From: Deltaproteobacteria bacterium
Lineage (GTDB): Bacteria; JAMCPX01
NCBI GenBank assembly: GCA_023382265.1
Contig: JAMCPX010000017.1
Span: 4,838-68,837, forward strand
Direction of reading: 5' to 3'
Length of the DNA stretch: 64,000 nt
The notes under the pieces were generated by a model. That model ran no database searches. It saw only the letters and a list, made by a program, of their open reading frames with translations, and was not told the DNA's origin. Position 1 is the first letter of the stretch; every line of letters begins with the position of its first letter. A program made the translations under genes and the position numbers. This document shows, in pieces, positions 13,966 through 63,276 of the stretch.

Positions 13966-13966
13966 T

Positions 13967-14776: not shown

Positions 14777-14777
14777 A

Positions 14778-16784: not shown

Positions 16785-16787
16785 GAG

Positions 16788-17156
16788 CTATCCTATATAC
16801 CTTTTTATAAACTTTTGAAGCGCCTCAGGCTTAAAGGGTTTAACAAGGTATTCGTTTGCACCAAGCCCGATACCTTTTTTCCTGTCATTCTCTGTTCCCT
16901 CTGTAGAGATAATGATTAGAGGTATATCTTTATACTGCTCATTTTTTCTTATAAAATTTATGAGTTCAAGCCCATTTATGTCAGGCATATTTATATCCGT
17001 TACGACTAGTTGAAATCTTACCTGCGGCAGCAGTTTTAGAGCTTCAAAACCAGTTGGAGCTTCATAGATATCATAGTCACCAACACTTTCTATAGCGGAG
17101 GAAATAAATGCACGCATGGTAGCGGAATCCTCTACAATAAGGATATTGTCTGTCAT
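16788..17156 (-). CDS. cheY: chemotaxis response regulator CheY
   Basis: 122-aa single REC with the conserved Asp pocket (ILIVEDSATMR...LVVTDINMPDINGLELI...PLIIISTEG...KP). Confidence 0.9.
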   Translation of the reverse strand: MTDNILIVEDSATMRAFISSAIESVGDYDIYEAPTGFEALKLLPQVRFQLVVTDINMPDINGLELINFIRKNEQYKDIPLIIISTEGTENDRKKGIGLGANEYLVKPFKPEALQKFIKRYIG

Positions 17157-17158
17157 TA

Positions 17159-42555: not shown

Positions 42556-43707
42556 TTAACCCAACCTTTTTTTGAACCTGCTCACGCTGAGCAGGAAAAG
42601 AACAATGCCGAAGAAGGCAAGTGCAAGTGCATCAGGCCAGAGGATGTACATGCCGGACCCCTTCATGAATATATATCTGACAATAACGATAAAATATCTC
42701 AGAGGTATAAGGAATGTGAAATACTGTACTGCAACAGGCATGTTGTCTATGGGAGACATAACGCCTGAAAGCAGTATTATTGGCATGATAAGCAGCATGG
42801 ATATCATCATTGCCTGCTGTTGAGTCTTTGAAACGGTCGAGATCAGAAGACCGAGTCCGAGTGTTGTAAGCATAAAAAGTGCGGACAACAAAAATAAAAG
42901 TATAAAGCTGCCGTGTAACGGTATCTGGAACCAGAACACCGAGACCATTGTAACGAGAGTGATGTCGATCAAACTGATAATGGCAAATGGCAGGAGCTTG
43001 CCTGCTATGAGTTCTATGGGTTTTATCGGGGTTACGATAAGCTGTTCAATTGTGCCGCGTTCCTTTTCTTTTACTATAGCCATGGAGGTAAGCACTGTAC
43101 TTATGATCATGAGCACAAGTGCAAAAACACCTGGCACCATAAAGTCCATGCTCTTGAGAGTTGGGTTGTACCAGACCCTTGGCTGTATATCCAGAGGTGT
43201 AAAAGGTTTGAGTCCGGTTTTAGACATCTGTTCTGCCGAAAGTTCAAGAGCCCTGTTGGTTATGATTCTTTCCAAATATGACCTTACCATTGTTGCATAG
43301 ATGGCATTCGATCCATCAATGACAGTCTGTATGTATGCCTTTCTGTCCCCGTTTATGTCTCTCTCAAGACCTTCTGGTATAACAATGCCGACCATGTCTT
43401 CACCGTCATCAAGGCTTTTTCTCACATCTCGTATGGAAGGTACTCTGTTCTGTATTACAAAATATCCTGAAGCTGTAATGTCGTTAAGGATGGTCCTGCT
43501 CTGCATGCTCTGATCCATGTCGCAAACGACAACAGGCACCGATTTTACGTCCAATGTTGCTGCATATCCAAACAGTGTAAGCTGTATGATTGGTGCCATA
43601 AAGGCAATAAACAGCATACGTTTGTCGCGTCTCAACTGAATAAATTCCTTGCGTGCTATTGCCTTTACCCTTAACAAAAAAAGTTTCCAGTTAATCATAT
43701 CAATCAA
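42556..43707 (-). CDS. ABC-2 family transporter permease (YbhR/YbhS-like)
   Basis: N-terminal TM, a large periplasmic loop, and a C-terminal six-TM ABC-2 permease domain. Confidence 0.8.
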   Translation of the reverse strand: MIDMINWKLFLLRVKAIARKEFIQLRRDKRMLFIAFMAPIIQLTLFGYAATLDVKSVPVVVCDMDQSMQSRTILNDITASGYFVIQNRVPSIRDVRKSLDDGEDMVGIVIPEGLERDINGDRKAYIQTVIDGSNAIYATMVRSYLERIITNRALELSAEQMSKTGLKPFTPLDIQPRVWYNPTLKSMDFMVPGVFALVLMIISTVLTSMAIVKEKERGTIEQLIVTPIKPIELIAGKLLPFAIISLIDITLVTMVSVFWFQIPLHGSFILLFLLSALFMLTTLGLGLLISTVSKTQQQAMMISMLLIMPIILLSGVMSPIDNMPVAVQYFTFLIPLRYFIVIVRYIFMKGSGMYILWPDALALAFFGIVLFLLSVSRFKKRLG

Positions 43708-44845
43708 GGCTCTTCTTTGTTTTTAAGATGCACAGTGTCAACACGATAACCGAGATTAGGATCATGATCAGTATCTGTGGCATAAGAACAAACATGCTCG
43801 AATTTTTAAGAAAAATACCTCTCAAAACAACAAGAAAATATTTTGCTGGTACAACGTAAGAGAATATTCTTAATGCCAGAGGCATACTGTTTATGGGATA
43901 TATGAATCCCGACAGGAGCAGGGATGGCAGCATGGTGCCTACAAAGGACATCTGCATTGCGACCTGCTGGGATTTTGTTATGGCTGAAAACAGAAATCCT
44001 ATGCCCATGGCACTCACCAGAAATAAAAATGTTGTAAGTGTCAGGAGCAGAAGGTTCCCCTTTAGAGGTACGTGGAATACAAGCACAGCGATTAGCGTAA
44101 CAAGTGTCACCTGGATAAAGCCTATCACGATATAGGGAACAAGCTTACCTATAATAAGCTCGTATACTTTTACGGGTGAGACAATAAGCTGTTCCATTGT
44201 TCCCCGTTCATACTCGCGTGCAACGCTCTGGGATGTCATGAGGACTCCAAGGATCATAAGTATGGTCGCTATGAGTCCGGGTACAATGAAGTTCTCCGTC
44301 CGCAGTGTTTGATTATACCATATACGGAGACGCTGCGATAAAAGGGGAAAATTCCTTGAAAGACTGGAATCACCTTGTTTATTGAGCATACGCTTTGTAA
44401 TATCGAGGGAGTATCCCTGTGCTGCAGCTATAAAATAGCCGAGGGCAACACCGCCTACATTGGCATCCGTCCCATCGATAAGAAGCTGAACGCCGGCTGT
44501 TTTATCGGCATTTATATTGTCCGCAAAATCGGGCGGAATAATAATGCCTATCTTTATATCTCCTTTCTCAATCAGGGTATTGATCTCTGTTCTGCTGTTT
44601 GCATTATCTGCAATGAGAAAATATGAAGATGCTGTTACCGCACGTATGAGCTGTCTGCTCTCCTGGGTATGCGATTGATCGAAAATACCCATGGGTATAT
44701 GTTTAATATCAAAGCTTACCGCATAGCCAAACAGCAGCAGCTGTATAATGGGGATCAATATGACAACGGCAAGGCTGATGGGATCCCTTATGATCTGGAT
44801 GAATTCTTTTTTTATGACTGGTCTGAGCAGACTATGACTTTTCAT
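43700..44845 (-). CDS. ABC-2 family transporter permease (YbhR/YbhS-like), paralogue of the previous gene
   Basis: Same architecture; it overlaps its neighbours by 8 and 14 nt. Confidence 0.8.
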   Translation of the reverse strand: MKSHSLLRPVIKKEFIQIIRDPISLAVVILIPIIQLLLFGYAVSFDIKHIPMGIFDQSHTQESRQLIRAVTASSYFLIADNANSRTEINTLIEKGDIKIGIIIPPDFADNINADKTAGVQLLIDGTDANVGGVALGYFIAAAQGYSLDITKRMLNKQGDSSLSRNFPLLSQRLRIWYNQTLRTENFIVPGLIATILMILGVLMTSQSVAREYERGTMEQLIVSPVKVYELIIGKLVPYIVIGFIQVTLVTLIAVLVFHVPLKGNLLLLTLTTFLFLVSAMGIGFLFSAITKSQQVAMQMSFVGTMLPSLLLSGFIYPINSMPLALRIFSYVVPAKYFLVVLRGIFLKNSSMFVLMPQILIMILISVIVLTLCILKTKKSLD

Positions 44846-45788
44846 TTTTGTCTTCTTGTTTTATGAGACTTATGAATATATCCTCAAGGGAAGGCGGGAT
44901 CGTGTTTAACCTGTTTACCCTTACTCCGTGTTCTTTCATAAGCTGTAGAATGTTTTTTATGATCGGCTCTATTGTGTCTGCGTGTGTAGTGGTAACAGCA
45001 TGGATGAGCCTGCCGAAAAAGGACACCTCATCCATTGTTTCCATGGATTTTATAAGTTTCAGTGCTGCCGAGGGAGAGTCTGTATCAAGCTCTATAATTA
45101 TTCCCTTCATCTGAGTACGTTTTATTTCCAGAGGTGTTCCTGATGCAACCATCTTTCCGTTGTAAATAAAGCCAAGCCTTGTACAGTTTTCTGCCTCATC
45201 CATGTAATGGGTTGTTACGAACATGGTCATACCCTTTTGTGCAAGGCTGTAGATGAGATCCCAGAACATCCTTCGAGAATCCGGATCAACACCTGCTGTC
45301 GGCTCATCCAGGAACAGGATCCTCGGTTCATGGATGATGGAGCATCCGAGTGCAAGCCTCTGCTTCCATCCGGCAGAAAGAGTGGATGTTATGACTTGCT
45401 CCCTGCCTTCAAGTCCTGTCAATTTTATTATCTCCTTTTTTCTCACTTTTAATCTGCTGTCATCTATCCCGTATATATTCCCAAAAAAGTCTATATTCTC
45501 CGAGACCGACAGATCACTGTAAAGAGAAAACTTTTGAGACATGTACCCTATAGAACTTTTCACATCGTCCGGTTGCACTGCGATATCGAATCCCGCAACC
45601 CGTGCAGAACCAGAGCTCGGCAGAAGCAGGCCGCAGAGCATCTTTACGGTTGTTGTTTTTCCTGCACCGTTAGGACCCAGAAAACCAAATACCTCGCCCT
45701 TTTCAACGCTTAACGTTATATCGTCAACCGCTACAAAATCCCCGAATGATTTTCTTAAATTTGTTGCTTTAATAGGTGTTTCTATCAT
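44832..45788 (-). CDS. ABC transporter ATP-binding protein (second ATPase of a YbhF-like pair)
   Basis: Walker A (GPNGAGKTT), LSAGWKQRL signature, and Walker B (LFLDEPTAGVD). Confidence 0.9.
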   Translation of the reverse strand: MIETPIKATNLRKSFGDFVAVDDITLSVEKGEVFGFLGPNGAGKTTTVKMLCGLLLPSSGSARVAGFDIAVQPDDVKSSIGYMSQKFSLYSDLSVSENIDFFGNIYGIDDSRLKVRKKEIIKLTGLEGREQVITSTLSAGWKQRLALGCSIIHEPRILFLDEPTAGVDPDSRRMFWDLIYSLAQKGMTMFVTTHYMDEAENCTRLGFIYNGKMVASGTPLEIKRTQMKGIIIELDTDSPSAALKLIKSMETMDEVSFFGRLIHAVTTTHADTIEPIIKNILQLMKEHGVRVNRLNTIPPSLEDIFISLIKQEDKNEKS

Positions 45789-46711
45789 TCACGTTCCTTT
45801 TCAATGATAGATACAAAGACATCTTCGAGCGTCGGTGGTGTAAATCCTGTTTGCTCTACAGCAATACCGTTATTATTGAGGATCTGTTTAACATCGGTTA
45901 TATACCAGGGATCCTGTTTGTCTACATAAATATGGATTCTATCCCCGAGTATGTGTACATGCCTGTAATTGTCAATTACGTTAAGTATCTGTTTTGCGTG
46001 TAACGGTTCTTTTACTACAGCCTCAAGCATTGTGCCTTTAATAAGGATTTTAATATTCTGGGGTGTGTCAACGACAGGCATGATACCATTATTCATAAGT
46101 GCAATGGTTGTGCATCTGTCGGCCTCATCCATATACGGCGTTGACATCAGGACTGTCATACCCTGATGCAGAAATGAATCAAGTATCTGCCAGAACTCGC
46201 GCCTTGATACAGGATCAACGCCTGTTGTCGGTTCATCGAGTATGAGCAACTGTGGCTGATGAATAAGCGTACATGCAAGCCCGAGCTTCTGCTTCATACC
46301 GCCCGAGAGCTTGCCTGCGAGTCTTTTTGTGAACGGTTCGAGGTTTGTAAACTTCAACAAATAATCTTTTTGCCTTATGAAATTAGTCCGTTCAACAGAA
46401 CGAAGTGATGCGAAAAATTTGAGGTTTTCATCTACGGTAAGTTCTTCATAAAGGCTGAACCTCTGTGGCATGTATCCAATCATCATGCCCGTTTCAGCCT
46501 TACGTTTTACGGCATCGGTCCCGAATATCTTGATTGAACCGCTGTCCGGCGTCATAACACCGGTGAGCAGCCGTATGAGCGTTGTTTTACCAGCCCCATC
46601 GGGTCCTATGAGACCGAAGAGATCGCCTTTATTTATACGGAAATTCACGCCGCGTACAGCCTCCGCTTTATCAAAAGATTTTTTAAGCTCTGATGTCTCA
46701 ACAGCAAGCAT
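45785..46711 (-). CDS. ABC transporter ATP-binding protein (first ATPase of a YbhF-like pair)
   Basis: Walker A (GPDGAGKTT), LSGGMKQKL, and Walker B (LILDEPTTGVD). Confidence 0.9.
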   Translation of the reverse strand: MLAVETSELKKSFDKAEAVRGVNFRINKGDLFGLIGPDGAGKTTLIRLLTGVMTPDSGSIKIFGTDAVKRKAETGMMIGYMPQRFSLYEELTVDENLKFFASLRSVERTNFIRQKDYLLKFTNLEPFTKRLAGKLSGGMKQKLGLACTLIHQPQLLILDEPTTGVDPVSRREFWQILDSFLHQGMTVLMSTPYMDEADRCTTIALMNNGIMPVVDTPQNIKILIKGTMLEAVVKEPLHAKQILNVIDNYRHVHILGDRIHIYVDKQDPWYITDVKQILNNNGIAVEQTGFTPPTLEDVFVSIIEKERE

Positions 46712-47577
46712 TACTTGGTCTCAAATACTGCATCGGCCGGCATGCCAGGTTTAAGAAGCATTTGACTATTATTAATATAAACCTTTACTGCAAACACAAG
46801 CGCAGTCCTGTCTTCCTTTGTCTGGACATCATGTGGTGTGAACTCCGCTTTATTGGCTATTTGCTCAACAGTACCGTCAAAGGTCTTATTTGGAAAACTA
46901 TCGACACTTAAATGTACATGCTGTCCAAGCCATACCCTGCCGAGGTCTATGTCGCTGACATATATTTTTATCCACGGTCTGTTCAGATTGCCTATCGTGA
47001 ATATTGTTGAACCAGGCATGATAACGTCACCGCGTTCGTAATTTTTTGTTAAAACAACACCCGTGATTGGTGACGCAAGCATACCCTCATCATACTGGAT
47101 CTCCGCAAGTTTTAAGGCACTTTTGGCTTCTTGCTTCATTGCGATTGCAGCATTTAATTGTGCCTTTGTTGAGTCCGTTTGTGATTTAATAAGATCAAAC
47201 TGCTGCTTTGAAGCCCCTCCTTTTTTATAAAGTGCCTCGATCCTTTTCAGGTCTGTTGCTAAATATCTCAGCTGAGCCTGAGCCGATACGATCTGTGCAT
47301 TTGCTGCTTTAAGACTTGCCTGTGCCCTGTTTTCCCCGGCAGTTAGTTCGCGTGTTGTCAATCTTGCAATAACTTCATCATTATTGACTTTATCACCCTC
47401 ATCAACACCAAGCCACCCGATCCTTCCCGGGATTTTTGAAGCAACGTTATATTCTGTAACCTCTATGGTCCCGCTGCCTGTTACGAGATTTGCGTTTTTA
47501 TTTGAGCAAGAAACGGTAATAAAACCTAACATACCGATAAACGTAAAAAACAATATATACGGTTTTCTAAACATCAT
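46711..47577 (-). CDS. HlyD-family periplasmic adaptor (YbhG-like)
   Basis: Signal/anchor, a coiled-coil hairpin, and a beta-barrel/lipoyl-like C-terminus. Confidence 0.8.
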   Translation of the reverse strand: MMFRKPYILFFTFIGMLGFITVSCSNKNANLVTGSGTIEVTEYNVASKIPGRIGWLGVDEGDKVNNDEVIARLTTRELTAGENRAQASLKAANAQIVSAQAQLRYLATDLKRIEALYKKGGASKQQFDLIKSQTDSTKAQLNAAIAMKQEAKSALKLAEIQYDEGMLASPITGVVLTKNYERGDVIMPGSTIFTIGNLNRPWIKIYVSDIDLGRVWLGQHVHLSVDSFPNKTFDGTVEQIANKAEFTPHDVQTKEDRTALVFAVKVYINNSQMLLKPGMPADAVFETK

Positions 47578-49976: not shown

Positions 49977-51692
<1,716 letters not shown>

Positions 51693-51715
51693 TTTTAATC
51701 AGCATGAGGCAAAAA

Positions 51716-51741
51716 GCAGGCACAAAGTGCCTGCTTTTTTT
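51716..51741. terminator. bidirectional rho-independent terminator after groEL
   Basis: GCAGGCAC-aaa-GTGCCTGC hairpin flanked by A5 and T7. Confidence 0.65.
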
Positions 51742-51831: not shown

Positions 51832-52527
51832 TTAATGTTTTTTGTCTTGCTCCGAGAGTGTTTCTTTGAATTCGGCTAATGTAAAAATGCCCTTTTTTAT
51901 AAGAATCGCTATTAATGCTTTTATGAATGGCTGCAATTGATTCTCTAAAGGTTCTTCAGTATTTTTTTCAAGTTCATCCTGTTTGATATGAGAATCTATC
52001 TGATATTTGTCCATTTTAACAGAAAGCTCTTCATCCTTTTGTGTTAGAATGGGCTCGTTAATCTTTGCAGGCAGAGGTTTATCTTTATAATAATAATTTA
52101 TAAAATCAGAAATCGTTGATTCCAGCGCGAGGACGGGTTGAATCTTATAACCAACCGCAAACTGAACTGCATCTATTGCTTCAAGGTTTGTAGGATCCGA
52201 CATTGCCAAATACAGACTGGGCTTGCCTGATGCAGCCTTGATTGCTAATGGTAAAATATTATATTTTTCCACAGTCTCAACATGTATGAGGTTAAGAACT
52301 TTTTTATCTATTGTAATCTTATAAAGATCAACCATTTGTATACCAAGCTGTTTACTGAGGAATTTGAGAATATCCATATCTTTTAAGAAACCTAATTTTA
52401 CGATTACTGTACCAAGCCTGCCTCCGTATTGTTTCTGATTCGATAGTGCAACTCTTAATTGTGTTTGATCTATAATACCATGTTCCAATAACATCTCACC
52501 AAGTTTTTTGTGAGCAGGTGGAGTCAT
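51832..52527 (-). CDS. standalone MshEN (T2SS-E N-terminal) domain protein, candidate c-di-GMP receptor
   Basis: Tandem 24-aa MshEN motifs with a 5-aa spacer: KLGEMLLEHGIIDQTQLRVALSNQ-KQYGG-RLGTVIVKLGFLKDMDILKFLSKQ. They are followed by the rest of a GspE_N fold and a short helical C-terminal tail. Confidence 0.7.
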   Translation of the reverse strand: MTPPAHKKLGEMLLEHGIIDQTQLRVALSNQKQYGGRLGTVIVKLGFLKDMDILKFLSKQLGIQMVDLYKITIDKKVLNLIHVETVEKYNILPLAIKAASGKPSLYLAMSDPTNLEAIDAVQFAVGYKIQPVLALESTISDFINYYYKDKPLPAKINEPILTQKDEELSVKMDKYQIDSHIKQDELEKNTEEPLENQLQPFIKALIAILIKKGIFTLAEFKETLSEQDKKH

Positions 52528-53309
52528 TTTAGATGCTGTTTCAGATCAGATTCCTTCATAATACCGCTGTCAATCAAAGTTTCTATAAGTGAATATAAGA
52601 CAGATTTGGTTTCCTTACCCGATAGAGTATTTGAGAGTTCTTGTGATAGCCCCTTTTTTGTACCAAGTGTTGAATCAAGAATTGCTTTTGCTTCTTCAGG
52701 CAATTCATTATCGGTTATTGTTGTAGATACGGACTGACCGCCAGGTTCATCGTGCATTATAACCATTTCCTCTGCATTTGAAGAATTTGTTACTTTTGGC
52801 TCATTTGGTGGTTGTTGTTCACCATTATTTACAGGTATTGCATTTCCAGGCATAAATTCTTCAACAGGATTATAATATTTTTTGATTGCGTTTGCTATAG
52901 CATTATCCGATGCCAAAACAGTTTTTATCGTGTATCCTGTTACGAATTGAAGTTCATCAAGGGATTCAAGGTTTGTAGGATCCGACATTGCTATAAACAA
53001 TACCTTTTTACCGCCTTCTATTTTTATACCGAGCGGTAAGACATTGTTCTTGGTTGCTATTTCCTCAGGAATTAATTCGATTGTGGATGGGCTGATCTTG
53101 ATCTTATCTATAGCTACATAGGGTATTTGTAACTGCTGGCTTAGAAACTTTAAAAGCTTTTCTTCTGTTATGAACTTAAGCTTTACCAGATTATTACCAA
53201 GCCTGCCTCCCCATTTTTGCCTTTCTGCAAGAGCAGCACGTAATTGGAATTGGTCGATAAGCCCGGCCTCAAGGAGTAAATCACCCAATCTCTTTTTACT
53301 TGTATTCAT
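52524..53309 (-). CDS. standalone MshEN (T2SS-E N-terminal) domain protein, paralogue of the previous gene
   Basis: RLGDLLLEAGLIDQFQLRAALAER-QKWGG-RLGNNLVKLKFITEEKLLKFLSQQ, then a GspE_N fold, a Pro/Asn-rich linker and the same C-terminal tail (LYSLIETLIDSGIMKESDLKQHL vs FIKALIAILIKKGIFTLAEFKETL). It overlaps the paralogue by 4 nt. Confidence 0.7.
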   Translation of the reverse strand: MNTSKKRLGDLLLEAGLIDQFQLRAALAERQKWGGRLGNNLVKLKFITEEKLLKFLSQQLQIPYVAIDKIKISPSTIELIPEEIATKNNVLPLGIKIEGGKKVLFIAMSDPTNLESLDELQFVTGYTIKTVLASDNAIANAIKKYYNPVEEFMPGNAIPVNNGEQQPPNEPKVTNSSNAEEMVIMHDEPGGQSVSTTITDNELPEEAKAILDSTLGTKKGLSQELSNTLSGKETKSVLYSLIETLIDSGIMKESDLKQHLK

Positions 53310-53631
53310 AGTTTTATTATATACTGTTTTATGATTATTTCAATGATCTTGATCACAGTGGTATTTTGAATAGAGGTTATGATCTGTATGATAGTTTAAG
53401 CTAAATAATGGCGACTTTTAGAAGTTATGTGATGATATGACTTAATAACTATGTATGGATACCTGTTGACAAAGTTATATGCACGCTATCTCAGTATACG
53501 CAATGTCTTACCCGTGCTGCATTATTTTTAGCAGTTCTGATAATACCTGCACCTGTACCATGACACATTAATCATATTTTACTTGTTTTACTGCTTGAGA
53601 TTATGTGCCATGACATGCTATTAGTAGCAGT

Positions 53632-54996
53632 ATGGATGTACAATTAAAAATGCTGGTAGTTGATGATCAGGAAAACATAAGATTTGCCGTATCAAATATA
53701 CTTAAAGCCAATAACTATGATGTTGTAACTGCCTCAGACGGGGATGAGGCATTTTTGGAGATTAAAAAACAGCATTATGATTTTGTTTTATGTGATGTAA
53801 AAATGCCAAAGATAGATGGGATGGAATTTCTAAGGGCATTGCAGAGACACAGAATAGACACGACCGTAATAATGATGTCTGCTTACGGAAATATCGATGC
53901 AGCAATAGAAGCTATAAAACAGGGCGCTTATGATTACATTCCCAAGCCTTTTAAACCCGATGAACTAATACTAACTATTAAAAAGGCAGAAGAACGGTTG
54001 AGACTTTACAATGAGAATGTCCGTCTTAGAAATGCAATCAGAAGAGATTATGATTTTAGTTCTATTTTAGGAAAAAGCACGAAAATACTTTCTATTTTAA
54101 ATCAGATCAAACAGGTAGCGGTTCATAAGACTACCGTTCTTATAACAGGAGAGAGCGGAACAGGTAAAGAACTTGTGGCAAGAGCAATTCACTATAACAG
54201 CGATCGCAGGAACAAGACTTTTGTATCAATAAATTGCGGAGCAATCCCCGAGAATCTTCTTGAGAGTGAGTTGTTCGGATATGTAAAAGGCGCATTCACG
54301 GGTGCATATACGAATAAGCAAGGACTATTTGAAGCTGCGGATCAGGGTAGTTTGTTCCTCGATGAGATCGGAGAATTGCCTGTTAATTTACAGGTAAAAC
54401 TTCTACGCGCCATTGAACAGTTACAAATAATGCGCATAGGCGATACAAGATCCATTGATATAGATGTGAGATTTGTGGCTGCTACATCAAGGGATCTTTT
54501 GGAACAAGTCAGGATTGGTAAATTCAGGAACGACCTTTTTTACAGGCTGAGTGTTTTCCATATTCATTTACCGCCTCTTAGAGAAAGGGAAGAAGATATT
54601 CCATTACTCGCAAATCATTTTTTAAAAAAGATTGCCAATGACATCAAAAAAACAATTAATAAATTCAGCGATGAAGCCATGAATATCATTATTAATTATG
54701 ACTGGCCTGGGAATGTTAGAGAGCTTGAAAATGTAATAGAAAGAGCGTGTATCATGAGCGAATATGATACAATTATGCCTGAAGATTTGCCTGATGCCAT
54801 TAAATCAAGTAGTGTAGAGGATATGATTACAGGACAAAAAGATTTATCAATTAAAAAGGCACAACGAAATCTTGAAATTAGGTTAATACAAAAAGCGTTA
54901 AAAAAAACCGCTGGAAATAAAACGCAGGCTGCAAAACTTCTTGAGATAAGTTTACGAGCCTTGATGTACAAGATTAGGAAGTATAATATTGAATGA
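53632..54996 (+). CDS. sigma54-dependent response regulator (NtrC/PilR family: REC-AAA+-HTH)
   Basis: REC domain (LVVDDQENIR...FVLCDVKMPKIDG), sigma54 AAA+ (GESGTGKELVARAIH, GAFTGA GAFTGA-box, ESELFGY) and a C-terminal Fis-type HTH. Confidence 0.9.
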   Translation: MDVQLKMLVVDDQENIRFAVSNILKANNYDVVTASDGDEAFLEIKKQHYDFVLCDVKMPKIDGMEFLRALQRHRIDTTVIMMSAYGNIDAAIEAIKQGAYDYIPKPFKPDELILTIKKAEERLRLYNENVRLRNAIRRDYDFSSILGKSTKILSILNQIKQVAVHKTTVLITGESGTGKELVARAIHYNSDRRNKTFVSINCGAIPENLLESELFGYVKGAFTGAYTNKQGLFEAADQGSLFLDEIGELPVNLQVKLLRAIEQLQIMRIGDTRSIDIDVRFVAATSRDLLEQVRIGKFRNDLFYRLSVFHIHLPPLREREEDIPLLANHFLKKIANDIKKTINKFSDEAMNIIINYDWPGNVRELENVIERACIMSEYDTIMPEDLPDAIKSSSVEDMITGQKDLSIKKAQRNLEIRLIQKALKKTAGNKTQAAKLLEISLRALMYKIRKYNIE

Positions 54997-56205: not shown

Positions 56206-57259
56206 ATGGCTTTATTTGGCGGAGGTAAACAATTAATAGGCCTGGATATTGGCACAAGTAGCGTTAAACTTGTTGAACTCAAACCAATGGGGAAAAAGGG
56301 GTACCAGCTCCTCAATCTTGGCATATCGAACCTTCCTCCGGACACGATAGTCGATGGAGATATAATAAATACCACTGCTGTAAGTGATGCAATAAAAAGT
56401 ATACTTTCAAATTTAAAAATAAAGAGCAAATCTGTAGCAACTTCTGTATCAGGGCACTCTGTTATTATGAAAAAAATAAACATGCCCATTACTACGGATG
56501 AAGCTCTCGCGGAATCAATACAATGGGAAGCTGAACAATATATTACGTTTAATATCAATGAAGTAAATCTTGATTATCAGGTACTTGAAAGATCAACCGC
56601 AGAAGGACAGATGAGTGTATTTCTTGTAGCGGCAAAAAAAGAGCTTATAAATAATTATGTTACCGCTATCAGTGAGGCTGGGCTAAATATAGATGTAATA
56701 GATATTGATGTTTTTTCGTTGCAGAATATGTTTGATGCCAACTATTCGGAATATGCCGATGAAACTGTAGCTATTGTGAATGTGGGTTCAAGTATAACCA
56801 ATTTCAATGTCGTTAATAAAGGCATCCCCGTTTTTGCAAGAGATTTAACCCAGGCAGGTGGCAACCAGATCACAGAAGAAATACAAAAAGGCTTAAATAT
56901 TTCAAGAGAAGAAGCGGAAAAAAGAAAAACCGACAGCAGTGGACAAATGACCCCAGATGTGATTGAAATTATAAAAAATGCTTCTGATGCGATTGCCGCA
57001 GATATTCAAAGGTCGATAGATTTTTATCTGTCAACAGGGGGGGGGAAAAATAAATAGAATTATGATTGGTGGTGGAACTGCTAAAATAGCCGATTTTACC
57101 GATCTTATAGCAAAAAGGACAGGTATACCTGTTGAGATTATAAATCCTTTTAAAAATATTGCTGTTAATACCAAGGTATTTGATATTAACTACATAAAAG
57201 AAATATCGCCGATTGTTTCAATAGCAGTCGGACTTTCTATAAGAAGGTCTGGAGACTGA
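56206..57259 (+). pseudogene. pilM: type IV pilus assembly ATPase-fold protein PilM, split by a +1 frameshift in a G9 homopolymer (ORFs 56206..57057 and 57062..57259)
   Basis: Actin/FtsA-like PilM blocks (IGLDIGTSSVKLVEL, RSIDFYLSTGGG). The tract GGGGGGGGG at 57037-57045 shifts the frame. Deleting one G restores ...LSTGGGKINRIMIGGGTAKIADF..., the canonical PilM C-terminus. Confidence 0.75.
57037..57045 (+). repeat. G9 homopolymeric tract causing the pilM frameshift
   Basis: Nine consecutive G followed by A5; it lies inside the GGG-GGG-GGG Gly codon run of pilM. Confidence 0.8.
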
Positions 57260-57261
57260 TT

Positions 57262-57846
57262 ATGATGAAAATTAACTTAATAAAACAGGCAAGTAAGGGA
57301 ATATCAAAAAAAGAGATAGCGATTTATCAGCAGCTTATAATTGGAGTTGCTGCGGTTGTTGTTCTGATAGGAATTCTTGTGTTTTTAGAGTATTCTATAG
57401 AGAATGCGATATCAACTACAACAACCAAGATAACTTCACTTAATGAAGAAATGCTTCGTCTTAACAAAACTGTAAATCAGATCAATGATTTCAAAAAGAA
57501 GAAAGAACAAATAAAAGCAAAACTTGACATTATTAAAACCCTTGAAAAAAATAGAATAGCGCAGGTCGTTTTAATGGATGAATTATCAAAATCAATTCCA
57601 ATCGATCAAACAAGCATTATCTCTAAAAGATTATGGTTAACCTCTTTAAGCGAACAGGGTAATCTTGTATTGATGGAGGGTATAGCACTCGATAATGATA
57701 CCATAGCAAAATTTATGAAGGATCTGTCTCGTAATGGTTATTTTAGAGAGATTAAACTTCAGCAAACCTCGCAATTTACATCAAACGATCTTTTGCTTTA
57801 TAAATTTGGAATTACGTGCAAATATGTATTCAGCGAGAAGCATTAA
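57262..57846 (+). CDS. pilN: type IV pilus assembly protein PilN
   Basis: N-terminal INLIK motif, one TM, a coiled-coil periplasmic region, and its position after pilM. Confidence 0.75.
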   Translation: MMKINLIKQASKGISKKEIAIYQQLIIGVAAVVVLIGILVFLEYSIENAISTTTTKITSLNEEMLRLNKTVNQINDFKKKKEQIKAKLDIIKTLEKNRIAQVVLMDELSKSIPIDQTSIISKRLWLTSLSEQGNLVLMEGIALDNDTIAKFMKDLSRNGYFREIKLQQTSQFTSNDLLLYKFGITCKYVFSEKH

Positions 57847-57861
57847 TGAAGAGGGGATATT

Positions 57862-58464
57862 ATGGATATTAATCTTAATACTTTGTCAAAATTGACCTTA
57901 CAACAAAAAATATTATTGATAGGTGTCATAATGATACTTGTTGTTCTTTTAGACCTTTATTTGTGGCCCGGTTATTTTGCTGAAAGAAATAAATTGGCAG
58001 TGCTAAAGGCTCAAGAGCAGAATATTCAGGCAAAAGTGCTCGAAACACAGGCTATAACAGCACATCTTAATGAATTCCAGGATGAGCTTGATAAATTAAA
58101 TGAACAACTAAAAGAGGCTTTAACGAAACTACCCAATACGGAAGAAATTGATAAATATCTTCTCACTATTAATACGCTTGCTAAAACAACCGATATAAAT
58201 GTATTGCAAATACAGCCCCAGGCAGAACAGAATAAAGGATTTTATGCAGAAATCCCTGTTAGTATAAATGTTACAGGGCGGTATCAGGATATTGCTACTT
58301 TTCTTGATAAGCTAACGCATCTTCAAAGGATAGTGAATGTCTCGGCTCTGAATTTAAAAATTAAAGGACAATCTTCTATAGGTAAGACTATTTTAAACGC
58401 ATCGTTTATAACAACGGTTTTCAGATTTGTGGAGCAGAAAACCAACACAACAGGTAAAAAATGA
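57862..58464 (+). CDS. pilO: type IV pilus assembly protein PilO
   Basis: One TM, a coiled coil, and a ferredoxin-like C-terminal domain, in the position following pilN. Confidence 0.75.
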   Translation: MDINLNTLSKLTLQQKILLIGVIMILVVLLDLYLWPGYFAERNKLAVLKAQEQNIQAKVLETQAITAHLNEFQDELDKLNEQLKEALTKLPNTEEIDKYLLTINTLAKTTDINVLQIQPQAEQNKGFYAEIPVSINVTGRYQDIATFLDKLTHLQRIVNVSALNLKIKGQSSIGKTILNASFITTVFRFVEQKTNTTGKK

Positions 58465-58477
58465 AAAAGGGTAATGT

Positions 58478-59008
58478 ATGAAAAAAATAAGCAGATTTAG
58501 GTTTCTCAATTTAATATTGTTGGTCTTGTTGATATCGGGCTGTAAAAGCAAAACAGTTTCAAAACCGGTTAATATTCAAAAACCGTTATCGGTTTCAACA
58601 ACTCAGATTCAACCTAAGACTACTGCTGTTACAGCAACACAGGGTACAACACAACAAAATGAATTTACTTATACTTATAATCCGGCAGGCAAACCCGATC
58701 CATTTGAACCATTTGATATATCAAAAATAAAACCATCGGCACAGCTTACCCCATTACAACAATTTTCATTGGATCAACTAATATTAAAAGGTATAATCTG
58801 GGGTGTATCGGATGCAAAGGCGATAATTCAAGATCCAACGGGTAAGACTTATATAGTCGGCAAGGGAGCAAAAATCGGTAAAAATAATGGTGAAATAGTC
58901 AGAATACTCGATGATAGGGTGATTATTCTTGAAAACTATACAGATGTTTTTACAGGTAAAATAAAAACAAACGAAGTTACAATGCAGTTAAAGAAAACAT
59001 CCCAATAA
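58478..59008 (+). CDS. pilP: type IV pilus assembly lipoprotein PilP
   Basis: Lipoprotein signal (LLISGC), a Thr/Gln-rich linker, and a C-terminal beta-sandwich (LKGIIWGVSDAKAIIQDPTGKTYIVGKGAKIG...VRILDDRVIILE). Confidence 0.7.
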   Translation: MKKISRFRFLNLILLVLLISGCKSKTVSKPVNIQKPLSVSTTQIQPKTTAVTATQGTTQQNEFTYTYNPAGKPDPFEPFDISKIKPSAQLTPLQQFSLDQLILKGIIWGVSDAKAIIQDPTGKTYIVGKGAKIGKNNGEIVRILDDRVIILENYTDVFTGKIKTNEVTMQLKKTSQ

Positions 59009-59020
59009 AGGGGGCATAAA

Positions 59021-61585
59021 ATGAATACAGGAGTAAAAACAAGAATCTTATTAGCATCTTTTTTGCTGATAATAATAACTATTATAGGCTCGTGTGGTGG
59101 GGCAAAACCTGTACCAGGTGGAGATAAAAATATCATAGGCAATATAGATATATCTGATCAAAGTAATGCAACAATAATAACTATAGAAGGCAGCCTTCCT
59201 CCTGTTTATACAATATTTAAGATGACTAATCCGTTAAGGATAGCGGTTGACTTAACCAATGTAGATATTTCAGAGGTATCAAAGAAATTGGCGATAGACA
59301 ATGGCGTAATAAATAAGATCACCGTAAACAAAGGTAAAGGCTCCAATAGTGGCAGAATCGAGATAGGGCTGGATAAGCTTGTAGATTATAACAGCTCTGT
59401 GCAGGGTAGTAATCTTATTATAAATGTCTCTAAAAAATCTACTTCATCAACAAATAATATGTTACCGGAACTTGGAGAACCTTCTGCAACAGGAATGGAG
59501 ATGTCGCCGCAAACCCAGAGTACCCCGGGAACCCAGGAAGGTTTACAACCCATTCAGGGATTAGCAGAAACTGCTCCGTCTATTCAGCCGTTGAGTGGGC
59601 AGTCACAGTCATTAATTCCTTCCCCGGAGGAAGCGGGTACAATGTCTACTGCACCAGCTATTGAAGAGCAGCCGGTTGCTGTAGAATCTGTTACACAGAC
59701 TGCACAGCCTCCAGCAGCGCAGCCGTTGGGAGAACAGCCTTTGCCAGAACAGCCGTCACTTATGCCTGAATCTCCTCAAACCACTGTAACACCTGCTGTA
59801 CCTGTTGTTGAGGAGCCTCCTTCGCAGCAAGCATTACAGCAGCCTGTGGCGAGTAAGATAATTGATGTAAAGTATGGATCATCAGATGGGAAAACAGTTG
59901 TTAAACTTATAGGTAATGGTGTAATAGGTAATTATAACGCATTTCGTCTTAGTAACCCTCCAAGATTGGTTATTGATGTTCTGAATGTGGGTAGTCTATA
60001 TCCTCAAAAAGAGGTGTCGGTAGGGACGAACGATGTTGAAAGAGTGAGGATTGGACAGTATCCCGATAAGGTCAGATATGTTTTTGATACACAAAGATCG
60101 CAATTTCCATCTTATGCAATAAATAAAAAAGGTAACGAGTTGGTTGTGTCTGTTGGTTCCGGGGTACAGGCAGAAGGTAAAGTTATTATCTCTCAACCCG
60201 AAAACCAGATTCCCGGGGCTCCGCCTCCTCAACAGATTTCTTCAGTTTCAAAATCTCCTGTCATGTTTTCACCGGCAGAACTTGGAATGAAAAAATATTA
60301 TACAGGCAGAAAAATTTCTTTAGATTTTAAAGATGCGGATATCCAGGATATTTTAAGAATAATAGCAGAAGTTGCCAATAAAAACATTATTACAAGTGAA
60401 AATGTCCAGGGTAAAATTACAATTAGAATGATCAATGTACCGTGGGATCAAGCACTTGATATTATACTACAAACAAATAAGCTCGGTATGGTTCAGGTTG
60501 GGAATATTATTCGGATAGCCCCATTATCAGAACTAAGGAAGGAAGAAGAGGCTCAACTCGAATCTAAACAAAAACAGGAAAAACTTGAAGCGCTCGTTAC
60601 AAGAATTATTCCCGTTAATTATGCAAAAGCTTCAGACTTGGCTGCACAGGTAAAAACCCTTCTAACTTCGAGAGGCAGTGTAAATATTGACACAAGGACC
60701 AATTCAATTATTGTTAAGGATGTCCCGAAGGTTGTGAGCGAATCTGAGCAGCTTGTTAAAGCTCTTGATCTTCAGACACCGGAGGTTCTTATTGAAGCGA
60801 GAATTGTTGAGGCTAATACGAATTTTTCAAGACAACTTGGAGTGCAATGGGGCGGTACTTACAACGCAAGTCCTGCTTATGGTAATGCAACAGGGCTTTC
60901 TTTCCCAAACACTATTGGTATTAGCGGACCAATCAATAAAGCGTCCTCAACCGGTGTGCCTAATCCTTTAACAGGCGGTGTAGGCTCGAGCGGTAGTAAT
61001 TTTCTTGTAAATCTTCCTGCAGCAGTAGGTGTTGGTAGTGGCGGTGGTATAGGTATGACGTTTGGTAACCTCACGAATAGTTTCTTACTGGATCTACAAT
61101 TAAGCGCTATGGAACAAACCGGTGAAGGTAAGATCATATCAAGCCCTAAGGTAACAACACTCGATAATACTCAGGCAAAGATTCAGCAAGGTTTATCAAT
61201 ACCATATCAGACAGTTTCTCAGATGGGTACGCAGACCCAATTTATAGATGCAGTGTTAAGTCTTGAAGTCACCCCACATATAACTGCCAATGGCAGCATT
61301 ATAATGAAGATTCAGGTGGAGAATGATGCACCTAATACATCAATACTCAGCGCCGGCGGTGTCCCGAGTATATCAAAGAAAGAAGCTAATACGCAAGTTT
61401 TGGTAAAGAATGGAGAAACTACTGTGATTGGAGGGATCTATCAAATGTCGCGTTCAAAAACGGTATCGGGTGTCCCGTGGTTCTACAAAATCCCTATTAT
61501 AGGTTGGTTATTTAAGAATACTTCATCAACAAATCAAACTACCGAACTGATAGTGTTTATTACACCGAGAATAGTTAATCAATAA
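59021..61585 (+). CDS. pilQ: type IV pilus secretin PilQ (AMIN domains, Pro/Gln-rich linker, N0/N1, secretin domain)
   Basis: Two AMIN-like beta domains and a long PQ-rich spacer. The secretin C-terminal signature follows (VLVKNGETTVIGGIYQ...VSGVPWFYKIPIIGWLFK...ELIVFITPRIV). Confidence 0.9.
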   Translation: MNTGVKTRILLASFLLIIITIIGSCGGAKPVPGGDKNIIGNIDISDQSNATIITIEGSLPPVYTIFKMTNPLRIAVDLTNVDISEVSKKLAIDNGVINKITVNKGKGSNSGRIEIGLDKLVDYNSSVQGSNLIINVSKKSTSSTNNMLPELGEPSATGMEMSPQTQSTPGTQEGLQPIQGLAETAPSIQPLSGQSQSLIPSPEEAGTMSTAPAIEEQPVAVESVTQTAQPPAAQPLGEQPLPEQPSLMPESPQTTVTPAVPVVEEPPSQQALQQPVASKIIDVKYGSSDGKTVVKLIGNGVIGNYNAFRLSNPPRLVIDVLNVGSLYPQKEVSVGTNDVERVRIGQYPDKVRYVFDTQRSQFPSYAINKKGNELVVSVGSGVQAEGKVIISQPENQIPGAPPPQQISSVSKSPVMFSPAELGMKKYYTGRKISLDFKDADIQDILRIIAEVANKNIITSENVQGKITIRMINVPWDQALDIILQTNKLGMVQVGNIIRIAPLSELRKEEEAQLESKQKQEKLEALVTRIIPVNYAKASDLAAQVKTLLTSRGSVNIDTRTNSIIVKDVPKVVSESEQLVKALDLQTPEVLIEARIVEANTNFSRQLGVQWGGTYNASPAYGNATGLSFPNTIGISGPINKASSTGVPNPLTGGVGSSGSNFLVNLPAAVGVGSGGGIGMTFGNLTNSFLLDLQLSAMEQTGEGKIISSPKVTTLDNTQAKIQQGLSIPYQTVSQMGTQTQFIDAVLSLEVTPHITANGSIIMKIQVENDAPNTSILSAGGVPSISKKEANTQVLVKNGETTVIGGIYQMSRSKTVSGVPWFYKIPIIGWLFKNTSSTNQTTELIVFITPRIVNQ

Positions 61586-62769: not shown

Positions 62770-62775
62770 TTATGT

Positions 62776-63276
62776 ATGGAACACATTATATTGGTCGGAA
62801 TGATGGGATCGGGCAAAACAACAATAGGAAATCTTGTAGCAAAAAAGAGCGGAAGGAATTTTATGGATACGGATACGATCATAGAACAAGAGGATGCTAT
62901 GTCCATATCTGATATAATGGTTTTGCGGGGAGAGTCTTACTTCAGGGCATTAGAGAGGAGAATTATTTTATCTATTGGGGTAACGAAGCCGTTTGTCATA
63001 TCAACCGGCGGCGGAGCTGTAATGGATTACGATATATTTAATTTTTTAAAGAAATTGGGTAAAGTCGTTTATCTTAAAGCAAGTCCGGAAACTCTTTACA
63101 GGCGTGTTGCCAACACCGAGAATAGACCGCTTCTCAGAAATGGGGATAGACTTTTGACTATACGGAAACTTTTACAAGAAAGAGAAGGGCGATATCTTGA
63201 ATCGGACATTGTTATTGAAACGGATAACCGTTCTCATGATGAGATTGCGGATGAAATCATTAAAAAGGTTTTATGA
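62776..63276 (+). CDS. aroK: shikimate kinase
   Basis: Walker A (GMMGSGKTTIG), ISTGGGAV, and 166 aa. Confidence 0.85.
   Translation: MEHIILVGMMGSGKTTIGNLVAKKSGRNFMDTDTIIEQEDAMSISDIMVLRGESYFRALERRIILSIGVTKPFVISTGGGAVMDYDIFNFLKKLGKVVYLKASPETLYRRVANTENRPLLRNGDRLLTIRKLLQEREGRYLESDIVIETDNRSHDEIADEIIKKVL

Follow-up and report, generated by a model that had tools for sequence, protein, structure and literature searches.

Two overlapping genes encode stand-alone MshEN-domain proteins, probable c-di-GMP receptors, in a deltaproteobacterium

Two overlapping genes within a 64,000-nucleotide stretch of deltaproteobacterial DNA (the whole stretch analysed, hereafter the window) encode paralogous proteins that carry an MshEN domain without an attached ATPase. 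We favour the reading, with a probability of about 60%, that this pair forms an operon for cytoplasmic stand-alone c-di-GMP receptors that signal by protein contact. Widespread c-di-GMP receptor domains number, to our knowledge, only three (MshEN, PilZ and ComFB), and in all characterised cases of MshEN that we found except PA3740 an output enzyme is fused to the domain. Free MshEN proteins that end in a conserved output-like tail and are often encoded as pairs would constitute a large family of diffusible c-di-GMP receptors, and identifying their targets would fill part of the known gap between the numerous cyclases and the small number of receptors in Myxococcota, Desulfobacterota and related lineages. 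Candidate targets are Opp-type ABC ATPases, type IV filament machines and cNMP-binding proteins.

Genes A and B encode MshEN domains without an ATPase

Gene A (positions 52524-53309, minus strand) encodes a protein of 261 residues and gene B (51832-52527, minus strand) a protein of 231 residues. An earlier note on this DNA had located both open reading frames correctly and quoted their peptide strings without error. Its description of them as tandem paralogues also holds, as the start codon of B overlaps the stop codon of A by ATGA (AAAATGACT) and the two proteins are 50% identical over 143 residues. Protein B is 100% identical to an NCBI protein from a metagenome-assembled genome (MAG) labelled 'Deltaproteobacteria bacterium'.

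The HMM check proposed in the earlier note, a search with T2SSE_N (PF05157, the Pfam MshEN profile), scored A at 76.9 bits and B at 61.8 bits, both above the curated threshold of 23.1 bits. Scores against the NCBIfam model NF053729 ('c-di-GMP_motif'), which covers the 53-residue c-di-GMP motif, were 71.2 and 67.6 bits, respectively, nearly twice its cut-off of 38 bits. Positions 1-53 of this model aligned without insertions or deletions to residues 7-59 of A and 8-60 of B. Because the alignment involves no change in length, the two 24-residue motifs and the 5-residue spacer are in register, and the register agrees with that of MshE as had been proposed.

The MshEN_N c-di-GMP module of A, matched end to end by NF053729 (residues 7-59; 53133-53291, minus strand), is composed of two 24-residue half-sites joined by a QKWGG spacer, with four helices predicted by AlphaFold2 (AF2) at residues 8-14, 20-33, 37-43 and 49-60. 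It is followed by a T2SSE_N1-type alpha/beta subdomain delimited by PF05157 (residues 60-148; 52866-53132, minus strand), for which strands and helices are predicted with a pLDDT around 90. This subdomain bears an AMSDPTN loop that is nearly invariant in the ortholog alignment: S109, D110, P111, T112 and N113 do not change, whereas M108 varies. B has the same layout, with a 53-residue module likewise matched end to end (residues 8-60; 52348-52506, minus strand) and a PF05157-defined T2SSE_N1-type subdomain (residues 61-149; 52081-52347, minus strand; pLDDT 92-95). The N1 subdomains of both proteins are canonical, covering positions 1-86 of the 90 in PF05157.

Mean pLDDT of the AF2 models was 70.8 for A (87-92 in its MshEN part) and 78.4 for B, with values of about 87-95 over residues ~10-148 and of 66-67 over the first ~10 residues. 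Both models show the secondary structure expected of a four-helix bundle plus T2SSE_N1 alpha/beta subdomain, and both adopt the MshEN fold, with c-di-GMP-bound MshE (5HTL) as the best structural match; for B, the best Foldseek match in the PDB was 5HTL at E 3.6e-11 with a TM score of 0.74 on the target. Profile coverage, models and structural match together support the full GspE_N fold that had been assigned to each protein. No match to the T2SSE ATPase domain (PF00437) was found in A or B with Pfam and NCBIfam, and of the 564 positions of the PilB model TIGR02538 only the first 142 align with A and the first 194 with B. A and B are stand-alone MshEN-domain proteins without an ATPase, as the earlier note had recognised.

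Half-sites fit the c-di-GMP-binding consensus approximately

Half-sites were scored at the consensus residues R1, L2, G3, G10, L17, L21 and Q24. None of the four matched the strict published consensus, each deviating at one position; the relaxed pattern given by Wang et al (2016) was passed by three and failed by motif II of A. The match to the MshEN consensus stated in the earlier note is only approximate. In motif I of A, Arg30 replaces Gln in this strain and other A orthologs have Gln; in motif II of A, Lys45 replaces Gly at position 10 and is kept in all A orthologs. The deviations in B are Lys8 for Arg at position 1 of motif I and Ile53 for Leu at position 17 of motif II. Gly3 is preserved in each of the four half-sites, as are the Leu clusters. 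Across 25 orthologues of A and B, the residues equivalent to MshE L10, G11, L25, L29, R38, L39, G40, L58 and Q61 either do not vary or reach at least 90% conservation. In MshE, G11L abolishes c-di-GMP binding and single Leu-to-Ala changes lower it 10- to 38-fold (Wang et al, 2016; PMC5013675).

Both non-consensus residues of A align with defined positions of MshE. Lys45 corresponds to the helix-turn Gly47, and Arg30 to the phosphate/ribose-contacting Gln32, whose replacement by Ala costs 9-fold in binding (Wang et al, 2016; PMC5013675). The PilB protein of Myxococcus xanthus, with Asn as the tenth residue of motif I, binds c-di-GMP according to the summary of Dye et al (2023) in PMC11656802; a known binder departs from the consensus at the motif position that Lys45 occupies in A. 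Judged from sequence, profile scores and model, A and B are probable c-di-GMP receptors, and their earlier designation as candidate receptors is credible. B appears the safer case, while A, with two non-consensus residues, is plausible.

Both proteins end in a conserved helix-turn-helix tail

The two proteins end in short tails that align and are related, in agreement with the similarity noticed earlier. The tail of A (residues 232-261; 52527-52616, minus strand; …LYSLIETLIDSGIMKESDLKQHLK) is predicted by AF2 to form helices at residues 232-247 and 253-259 (pLDDT 67-78); it is conserved in orthologs, where Leu245 and Gly249 are invariant. That of B (residues 200-231; 51835-51930, minus strand; …FIKALIAILIKKGIFTLAEFKETLSEQDKKH), likewise conserved in orthologs, is predicted to form helices at residues 200-211 and 217-230 with a pLDDT of about 78.

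An HMM of the half-motif aligned the B tail ILIKKGIFTLAEFKETLSEQ to motif positions 5-24, and hhalign placed the tail, that of A included, in register on half-motif I (P = 7.6e-5, probability 62%). With an independent HMM of the half-motif, tails scored a mean of 4.5 bits compared with -1.7 bits for composition-matched shuffles, and 43% of tails scored above the 99th percentile of the shuffles. Because a HMMER secondary-domain search with the MshEN profile gave insignificant scores of about 0 on the tails, we relied on the shuffle test and hhalign. From these alignments, the tail looks like a third 24-residue half-motif that lacks the ligand-contacting Arg1 and Gly3, and from this lack we infer that it would be unable to bind nucleotide. 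The similarity is weak, and short helix-turn-helix segments can converge.

A and B belong to a tail-bearing family often encoded in tandem

A full-length profile search matched many proteins of 200-340 residues end to end. The family so delineated comprises proteins of this length with a single MshEN domain, a disordered linker of variable length and a C-terminal hairpin of the form LxALxxLLIxKGhhTxEEh (in the helix-turn-helix of the typical architecture, LxALxxLLIEKGhITxEE); A and B fit this definition. Of the top 150 family representatives, 82 were short proteins, and 56 of these carried the tail. By sequence, A and B belong to a large family that has no formal name and whose architecture is undescribed, and we found no functional characterisation of any member with MshEN plus tail in the literature searched. 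The earlier note's view that the arrangement is little studied is fair in this respect; however, there are many genes for stand-alone MshEN proteins, and Wang et al (2016) had already included MXAN_4666/4667 in their alignments.

Tandem MshEN-only pairs occurred in 16 of about 45 metagenome loci. For pair members, the best hit in another locus held the same position of the pair in 28 of 29 cases, many of these loci being close relatives. Identity within the pair is 50% for A and B as against 28-41% for pair members elsewhere, and the best outside match of B is a first-position gene. This closeness, together with the match of B to the first position, suggests that A and B may stem from a separate duplication and not be the ancient pair. 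Beside the singleton A-like gene P0017, neither further MshEN copies nor a decayed B were found.

The pair is conserved and its pilus neighbourhood is not

The A-B pair, with genes overlapping or abutting, is kept in at least eight related MAG loci, at 62-66% identity for A and 52-61% for B. At these loci it is flanked on one side by grx-groES and a CsgG/FlgT_N/GNA1162/PEGA lipoprotein cluster and on the other by ribonucleotide reductase. Comparison with a 97%-identical strain gave dN/dS values of 0.16 for A and 0.375 for B; both genes are under purifying selection, B being more relaxed.

In the window, a REC-sigma54 AAA-HTH_8 response regulator identified with Pfam (53632-54996, plus strand) diverges from A and is followed by pilM (frameshifted in the assembly), pilN, pilO, pilP and pilQ (56206-61585, plus strand; Pfam PilM_2, PilN, PilO, PilP and Secretin/AMIN). 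The A-B pair lies 2.9 kb from pilM both here and in the 97% strain. This geometry is as the earlier note described it. The functional tie that it suggested from the geometry was not supported: synteny with the regulator and pilMNOPQ is shared only by the 97%-identical strain, so the pilus link is positional. Nor can the regulator be called PilR-like, because no PilS kinase or pilin gene is adjacent, the highest-scoring NCBIfam models for it are of generic NtrC/AtoC type and stay below their equivalog cut-offs, and its flanking intergenic regions gave no -24/-12 match.

For the wider family, 146 neighbour proteins were clustered by BLAST and the cluster representatives scanned with Pfam. The recurrent neighbours were Opp-type ABC transporter genes, the commonest, which flank 12 of about 45 metagenome loci, and cNMP-binding proteins; no pil gene recurred beside family members in the 45 loci. 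The pilus association is local and unsuited as a basis for annotation.

Regulatory signals around the pair and remaining content of the window

Directly upstream of A, a consensus scan found a sigma70-like promoter (53316-53343, minus strand; TTGAAA-16-TATAAT, 11/12); it scored best in the scan, as a match to the consensus only; the DNA is AT-rich, and the overall number of sites does not exceed that in shuffled sequence. Its -10 element ends 6 nt before the ATG of A, and the transcript could therefore be leaderless. Between the convergent B and groEL lies a hairpin flanked by A/T runs (51711-51739, no strand assigned), with a 13-bp stem containing six GC pairs and T-runs on both strands, which is likely a bidirectional terminator ending the A-B operon.

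A scan for sigma54 sites (TGGCAC-N5-TTGCW, up to two mismatches) gave 34 matches in the window where 27.5 were expected, and no such -24/-12 site in the intergenic region between A and the regulator or just upstream of pilM. An Rfam scan of the window returned one tRNA only and no c-di-GMP riboswitch. Among the window ORFs scanned, none encoded GGDEF, EAL, PilZ, PilB, PilT or PilC, and pilA was likewise not found; for a few ORFs, among them 42556-47577 and 61585-63276, the identity comes solely from the homologous locus of the strain. The window also carries a chemosensory cluster with a PATAN-REC regulator. Its ABC genes at 42.5-46.7 kb are of the ABC-2 exporter type, as judged from the homologous strain locus. 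An intergenic direct repeat, TGTCATGGYACA, is present as a single exact copy in the 97% strain.

A model of contact-based signalling and its alternatives

In MshE, PilB and NfrB, MshEN_N clamps one c-di-GMP between its two 24-residue half-sites. In the reading that we favour, A and B would be co-expressed from a two-gene operon as three-part proteins (MshEN_N plus T2SSE_N1, linker and tail) whose four-helix MshEN_N modules bind c-di-GMP. The linker, predicted to be disordered and variable in length, would connect this sensor to the conserved C-terminal helix-turn-helix, and output would pass through protein-protein contact and not through an attached enzyme. The N1 subdomain, the C-terminal hairpin or both would provide the interaction surfaces, and the hairpin, as a nucleotide-dead third copy of the repeat, may serve dimerisation of A with B or docking of a partner. 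A more ambitious version seems improbable to us: that the tails are ligand-dead MshEN repeats by which A and B pair into a pseudo-MshEN_N bundle, making an obligate heterodimeric c-di-GMP sensor, and that MshEN proteins throughout the family regulate separate ATPases in trans, in most lineages those of Opp-type ABC transporters and in this one a pilus motor or platform. If true, it would extend c-di-GMP control to peptide-type ABC transport, of which we found no description in the literature searched.

The remaining readings differ in what the proteins act on and in whether they bind ligand at all. It was originally suggested that A and B could be free c-di-GMP sensors with pilus assembly or the neighbouring sigma54 regulator as their target; for the type IV pilus this could mean, for example, docking on PilM or the platform and replacing or joining the N-domain of PilB itself. 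The gene order shared by the window and the 97% strain, in which the pair diverges from the regulator and pilM is 2.9 kb away, would fit this, as would the standing of PilB N-termini as the closest sequence relatives of the domain, the use of N1 by GspE to bind GspL and by X. citri PilB to bind PilZ (with 4PHT, 2BH1 and 7LKM among the fold matches), the chemosensory cluster with its PATAN-REC regulator, and the location of MXAN_4667/4666 about five genes from the Tad-like Kil cluster MXAN_4648-4661. However, at every sister-clade locus (62-66% identity) the regulator and pilMNOPQ are gone from beside the pair, the 45 metagenome loci yielded no recurrent pil neighbour, the region upstream of A has no sigma54 promoter match, and pilB, pilT, pilC and pilA are missing from the window ORFs scanned; we consider this reading unlikely. 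Somewhat more doubtful is the reading that ATPases of Opp/Dpp-type ABC transporters are the true partners of the family and that A and B regulate one encoded elsewhere in the genome, a trans version of the MshEN-ATPase fusion. Family members do lie between oppB- and oppC-like genes (loci L014-L016 and L026), and both the Corallococcus locus L017 (equivalent to MXAN_4667-4666) and loci L097-L099, which hold the nearest full-length outgroup of A, stand directly upstream of two OppD/F-like oligo_HPY genes; Opp-type genes adjoin 12 of about 45 metagenome loci. Yet the association is by position only, no Opp-type gene is near the pair in the window or the sister clade, and the ABC genes at 42.5-46.7 kb are of the exporter type noted above.

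One or both proteins could instead be degenerate, non-binding MshEN domains, like that of X. campestris XpsE, that act as structural adaptors only. Wang et al (2016; PMC5013675) point to numerous MshEN domains that no longer bind, motif II of A fails the relaxed pattern at Lys45, Arg30 stands in for Gln in this strain, and B evolves under more relaxed constraint (dN/dS 0.375). But XpsE carries eight substitutions at key MshEN positions (Wang et al, 2016; PMC5013675) against one or two each in A and B, Gly3 persists in all four half-sites along with the Leu clusters, and the NF053729 scores are nearly twice the cut-off, which makes outright loss of binding quite unlikely. That the ORFs are non-functional N-terminal remnants of a decayed pilB or gspE is hardly credible. 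Their PilB homology is to N-termini only and the neighbouring pilM is frameshifted in the assembly, but the genes are full-length and conserved across divergent MAGs, the non-PilB tail is conserved, dN/dS is below 0.4, promoter and terminator signals are present, and no ATPase-coding remnant lies downstream. Conservation effectively refutes such a remnant, and with dN/dS it rules out a pseudogene reading of A and B.

Comparison with known systems

The closest solved homologues of A and B are the N-domains of M. xanthus and Geobacter PilB, Thermus PilF and V. cholerae MshE. MshE (5HTL; PMC5013675) shares the two-subdomain fold and the 24+5+24 module in register, is about 33% identical to B in the structural alignment, and has ligand-contacting Leu, Gly and Gln positions that are largely kept in A and B, although each half-site of the latter has one non-consensus residue. 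In MshE a T2SSE ATPase follows the domain, whereas A and B continue into a disordered linker and C-terminal hairpin. The PilB/PilF N-domains (3JC8, 5ZFR, 5TSG, 6F8L and 8PDK) are the best sequence matches, with E values of 1e-24 to 1e-36, and M. xanthus PilB resembles A in having a residue other than Gly at motif position 10 while, in the summary cited above, binding c-di-GMP. All of these PilB/PilF domains are joined within one polypeptide to the pilus extension ATPase, unlike those of A and B. E. coli NfrB, a glycosyltransferase with a C-terminal MshEN domain, puts the c-di-GMP module to a non-pilus use, and the NCBIfam model for NfrB aligns with the MshEN part of both A and B; its glycosyltransferase output is fused, whereas the output of A and B must be a separate protein.

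Among stand-alone-type MshEN proteins, P. aeruginosa PA3740 was the only one found with experimental data. Like A and B it is a small non-ATPase MshEN protein. Wang et al (2016; PMC5013675) report a role for it in swarming motility and include it in their list of proteins whose c-di-GMP binding was characterised by experiment. Supplementary Table 4 of that paper gives its architecture as MshEN_N followed by a highly divergent N1, and it occurs in beta- and gamma-proteobacteria; this published description sets it apart from A and B, whose N1 is canonical.

Closer in architecture are M. xanthus MXAN_4667/MXAN_4666 and their Corallococcus orthologues, which belong to the same family as A and B (E about 1e-54 for P0291). 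They form a tandem MshEN-only pair, are about 40% identical to A over the domain and have the same architecture including the tail (…LKAMVELLIEKGVFSREEYLAKVKR). They differ from A and B in that two OppD/F-like ABC ATPase genes follow and the Kil Tad-like cluster is near. Both were included in the supplementary MshEN alignments of Wang et al (2016; PMC5013675), and we found no report of their function in the literature searched. With MXAN_4666/4667, M. xanthus offers a tractable test system.

A and B are constrained genes encoding stand-alone MshEN proteins

The minus-strand ORFs A (52524-53309, 261 aa) and B (51832-52527, 231 aa) encode proteins with 50% identity across 143 residues, and an NCBI MAG protein labelled 'Deltaproteobacteria bacterium' has the same sequence as B (100% identity). 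The start ATG of B overlaps the stop TGA of A (AAAATGACT), a strong consensus match to a sigma70-like promoter (TTGAAA-16-TATAAT; 53316-53343, minus strand) precedes A, and a GC-rich hairpin between A/T runs lies at 51711-51739, between B and the convergent groEL, such that the two genes look like a compact operon. Because the -10 hexamer ends 6 nt before the ATG of A and no Shine-Dalgarno sequence is visible before this codon, the mRNA may be leaderless. Compared with a near-identical (97%) strain, dN/dS was 0.16 for A and 0.375 for B (0.08 for the neighbouring regulator and PilQ), values that indicate real, constrained genes and rule out a reading of A and B as pilB fragments.

Pfam detected MshEN (PF05157; cut-off 23.1 bits) as the sole domain of each protein, with scores of 76.9 bits (A) and 61.8 bits (B) and a match spanning the T2SSE_N1-type part, residues ~60-149. 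NF053729, the 53-residue NCBIfam 'c-di-GMP_motif' (cut-off 38 bits), was matched end to end by residues 7-59 of A (71.2 bits) and 8-60 of B (67.6 bits), which places their 24+5+24 arrangement in register with the family. The PilB, NfrB and GspE models aligned over the N-terminal part alone, and the Pfam and NCBIfam scans found no ATPase domain in either protein. Thus the earlier note, whose quoted peptides occur exactly in A and B, was correct in describing stand-alone MshEN proteins without an ATPase, both by PF05157 score and by the register of the two motifs.

Among solved structures, the nearest relatives are the N-domains of Thermus PilF, Myxococcus xanthus PilB, Geobacter PilB and Vibrio cholerae MshE. 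In the AlphaFold2 models of A and B the MshEN fold is confident (pLDDT about 87-95), the linker after it is disordered (below 50), and the C-terminus forms a helix-turn-helix (67-79). A Foldseek search of the PDB with model B gave MshE with c-di-GMP (5HTL) as best match (E 3.6e-11, TM 0.74 on the target, 33% identity).

Most, but not all, binding positions are conserved

It had been proposed that both proteins match the MshEN consensus RLGxx(L/V/I)(L/V/I)xxG(L/V/I)(L/V/I)xxxxLxxxLxxQ. This held only in part: three of the four half-sites (the 24-residue repeats, motifs I and II) conform to the relaxed pattern applied by Wang et al (2016; PMC5013675) in genome counts, but none fits the strict consensus and A motif II fails both. 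A motif I ends in Arg30 instead of Gln (Arg also in the 97% strain, Gln in A orthologues 62-66% identical); A motif II has Lys45 instead of Gly at position 10, which all A orthologues share; in B motif I the first residue is Lys8 instead of Arg, kept throughout the B clade; and B motif II carries a conservative change at position 17, Ile53 instead of Leu.

Mutagenesis of MshE gave most weight to Gly3 of each half-site and to the Leu clusters: binding was lost in G11L, fell 72-fold in G40I and fell 10- to 38-fold when single Leu residues were changed to Ala (Wang et al, 2016). Among 25 A and B orthologues, conservation at the Gly3 and Leu-cluster positions is complete or no lower than 90%. A sequence alignment places Asn at position 10 of motif I in M. 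xanthus PilB, and binding of c-di-GMP by that protein has been reported (Dye et al, 2023, as cited in PMC11656802), so a non-Gly residue there is not disqualifying. Judged from these motifs, c-di-GMP binding is likely for B and plausible for A.

The C-terminal hairpin marks a widespread family

A search of 1.84 billion representative proteins with a profile spanning the full length of the A and B orthologues gave 27,860 hits at E ≤ 1e-3, a set that takes in practically all proteins bearing MshEN, and 1,071 hits at E ≤ 1e-30. Among the best 150 matches, 82 were at most 350 aa long and many aligned from the N-terminus through the C-terminal tail; by a simple pattern, 56 of these 82 carry the tail (consensus …LxALIxLLIKKG(I/V)(I/F)TxEEF…). 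The third homology search started from a diverse alignment and found about 1,000 proteins at E ≤ 1e-10. The 120 listed are nearly all 200-340 aa with PF05157 as sole Pfam domain, and include members from Myxococcaceae, Deferrisomatales and the cultured Corallococcus macrosporus. A and B belong to this widespread, uncharacterised architecture.

The tail resembles positions 2-21 of the MshEN repeat (cf. kLGELLiEAGLIDefQLrAAL), without Arg1 and Gly3. With an HMM built from PilB-type half-motifs alone, real tails averaged 4.5 bits versus -1.7 bits for composition-matched shuffles, and 43% of tails exceeded the 99th percentile of the shuffles. The tail profile aligned in register on motif I by hhalign (P = 7.6e-5, probability 62%), and secondary HMMER hits on the tails were insignificant; together these tests suggest, but do not prove, the resemblance. 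In MshE, Gly3 provides the backbone amides that read guanine (Wang et al, 2016). Nucleotide binding by a hairpin lacking this residue would be unlikely, pointing instead to a role in dimerisation or partner docking.

Opp-type transporter genes are the commonest context

A metagenome scan yielded 79 loci, of which about 45 hold non-ATPase MshEN genes; 16 of these have two MshEN-only genes in tandem. The best match of a pair member elsewhere lay at the same pair position in 28/29 cases, many loci being close relatives; the exception is B of the window. BLAST clustering and Pfam annotation of the neighbours found Opp-type permeases beside 9 loci and OppD/F-type ATPases beside 7 (union 12), and no recurrent pil genes in the about 45 loci. 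In eight loci (L041:3727-6072, L051:8820-10295, L043, L044, L045, L049, L062, L064) the MshEN gene is convergent with one encoding two cNMP-binding domains, which hints at c-di-GMP/cNMP cross-talk.

Tail-bearing MshEN genes lie inside Opp/Dpp-type ABC operons (L014:8001-8609, L015:8001-8609, L016:5620-6228, L026:6369-7217) in the order SBP_bac_5-OppB-MshEN-OppC-OppD-OppF, or directly upstream of two OppD/F-like ATPase genes with no permease genes near (L017:10001-13841, L097:10001-12490, L099:10001-12507). Independent look-ups agree: 202-aa Desulfuromonadales members sit between oppB- and oppC-like genes, and immediately after the nearest full-length outgroup of A (40% identity) come two OppD/F-like genes and a convergent PilZ gene. 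Opp-type ABC genes are thus the family's commonest context, which suggests that a peptide-type ABC transporter is controlled by c-di-GMP; the literature searched held no MshEN-Opp connection. Elsewhere, in the metagenome loci L090-L093, the gene immediately upstream of and overlapping a full-length PilB-type ATPase gene encodes a non-ATPase protein of 300-324 aa whose MshEN domain is C-terminal (e.g. L092:7013-7987 and 7980-9725), a further case of a free MshEN protein encoded beside a motor.

The Corallococcus gene (strain HW-1) is the first of a tandem MshEN-only pair (L017:10001-11770; 250 and 336 aa), followed by the two OppD/F-like genes, an ECF sigma/anti-sigma pair and, about five genes away, TadE/TadG-like genes that correspond to the M. 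xanthus Tad-like Kil cluster 2 (MXAN_4648-4661). Its N-terminus matches that of MXAN_4667, which stands beside MXAN_4666 in the supplementary MshEN alignments of Wang et al (2016), and the pair is the equivalent of MXAN_4667/MXAN_4666. Beyond these alignments, no mention of either protein was found in the literature searched.

Pilus and transporter as candidate targets

The A-B tandem recurs, overlapping or abutting, in at least eight loci of related uncultured bacteria (A orthologues 62-66% identical, B 52-61%). Here the divergent neighbours are grx-groES and a FlgT_N/CsgG/GNA1162/CsgG/PEGA lipoprotein cluster, the convergent neighbour is ribonucleotide reductase, and neither a sigma54 regulator nor pilMNOPQ adjoins the pair at any of them. 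One A-like gene (52% identity) occurs as a singleton, within a mobile-element region. In the window groEL (50040-51692) follows a TonB_C-like gene and lacks groES upstream, and the sister clade has a lone groES (L012:8411-8683) that is divergent from the MshEN pair and not followed by groEL, suggesting that a rearrangement beside the pair split an ancestral groES-groEL operon.

The output of A and B would be protein-protein contact, via the N1 subdomain and/or the C-terminal hairpin. The earlier note had them act on the pilus or the adjacent regulator, which is possible: the MshEN domain derives from pilus and secretion ATPases, docking through N1 is known, and in M. xanthus, too, a type IV filament cluster is found close to the pair. 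However, the gene adjacency behind this proposal, although real in the window (regulator 53632-54996, pilMNOPQ 56206-61585, both plus strand), is shared with the 97% strain only and is lost already at 65% identity. The regulator, described as PilR-like, is of a generic NtrC/AtoC type and has neither a PilS gene nor a pilin gene as neighbour, and the 322-bp intergenic region between it and A contains no sigma54 -24/-12 match. Opp-type transporters are an alternative target class, suggested by the family-wide linkage, but the linkage is missing at the window locus.

Several further features were observed in the window. The only two copies of a direct repeat, TGTCATGGYACA, in the window (53554-53565 and 53604-53615, minus strand) are spaced by 50 bp and closely precede the regulator start codon; the 97% strain has one exact copy. 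An extra G in a G9 run (57037-57045) splits pilM (56206-57259) into 283-aa and 65-aa ORFs, the 97% strain having GGTGGGGGT and an intact 350-aa PilM, which reflects either a homopolymer assembly error or a slippage-prone tract switching pilM off. A complete chemosensory cluster (5799-18835, minus strand) encodes PATAN(DUF4388)-REC, CheY, CheA, an AAA_22 ATPase, two CheW, an MCP with sCache/HAMP, Zn-ribbon-REC, a HEAT-repeat protein, CheR and CheB. In cyanobacteria, type IV pilus motors are controlled by PATAN-REC regulators.

Comparison with characterised MshEN proteins

By sequence and model, A and B are best interpreted as paralogous stand-alone c-di-GMP receptors of the MshEN class, a domain whose ligand mechanism is well described (Wang et al, 2016). 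They differ from the characterised ATPases (MshE, PilB, PilF) and glycosyltransferase (NfrB), in which the output is fused to the domain. PA3740 is likewise small and without an ATPase, and has been experimentally characterised for c-di-GMP binding, with a reported role in swarming motility, but its N1 is divergent (Wang et al, 2016). The many architectures in Supplementary Table 4 of that study do not include MshEN, linker and conserved C-terminal hairpin, nor is a recurrent tandem arrangement noted there. The domain itself is unsurprising, and the tail, the pairing and the targets are the points of interest. All three are amenable to testing, and a tandem MshEN-only pair is present in a cultured, genetically tractable relative, Corallococcus.
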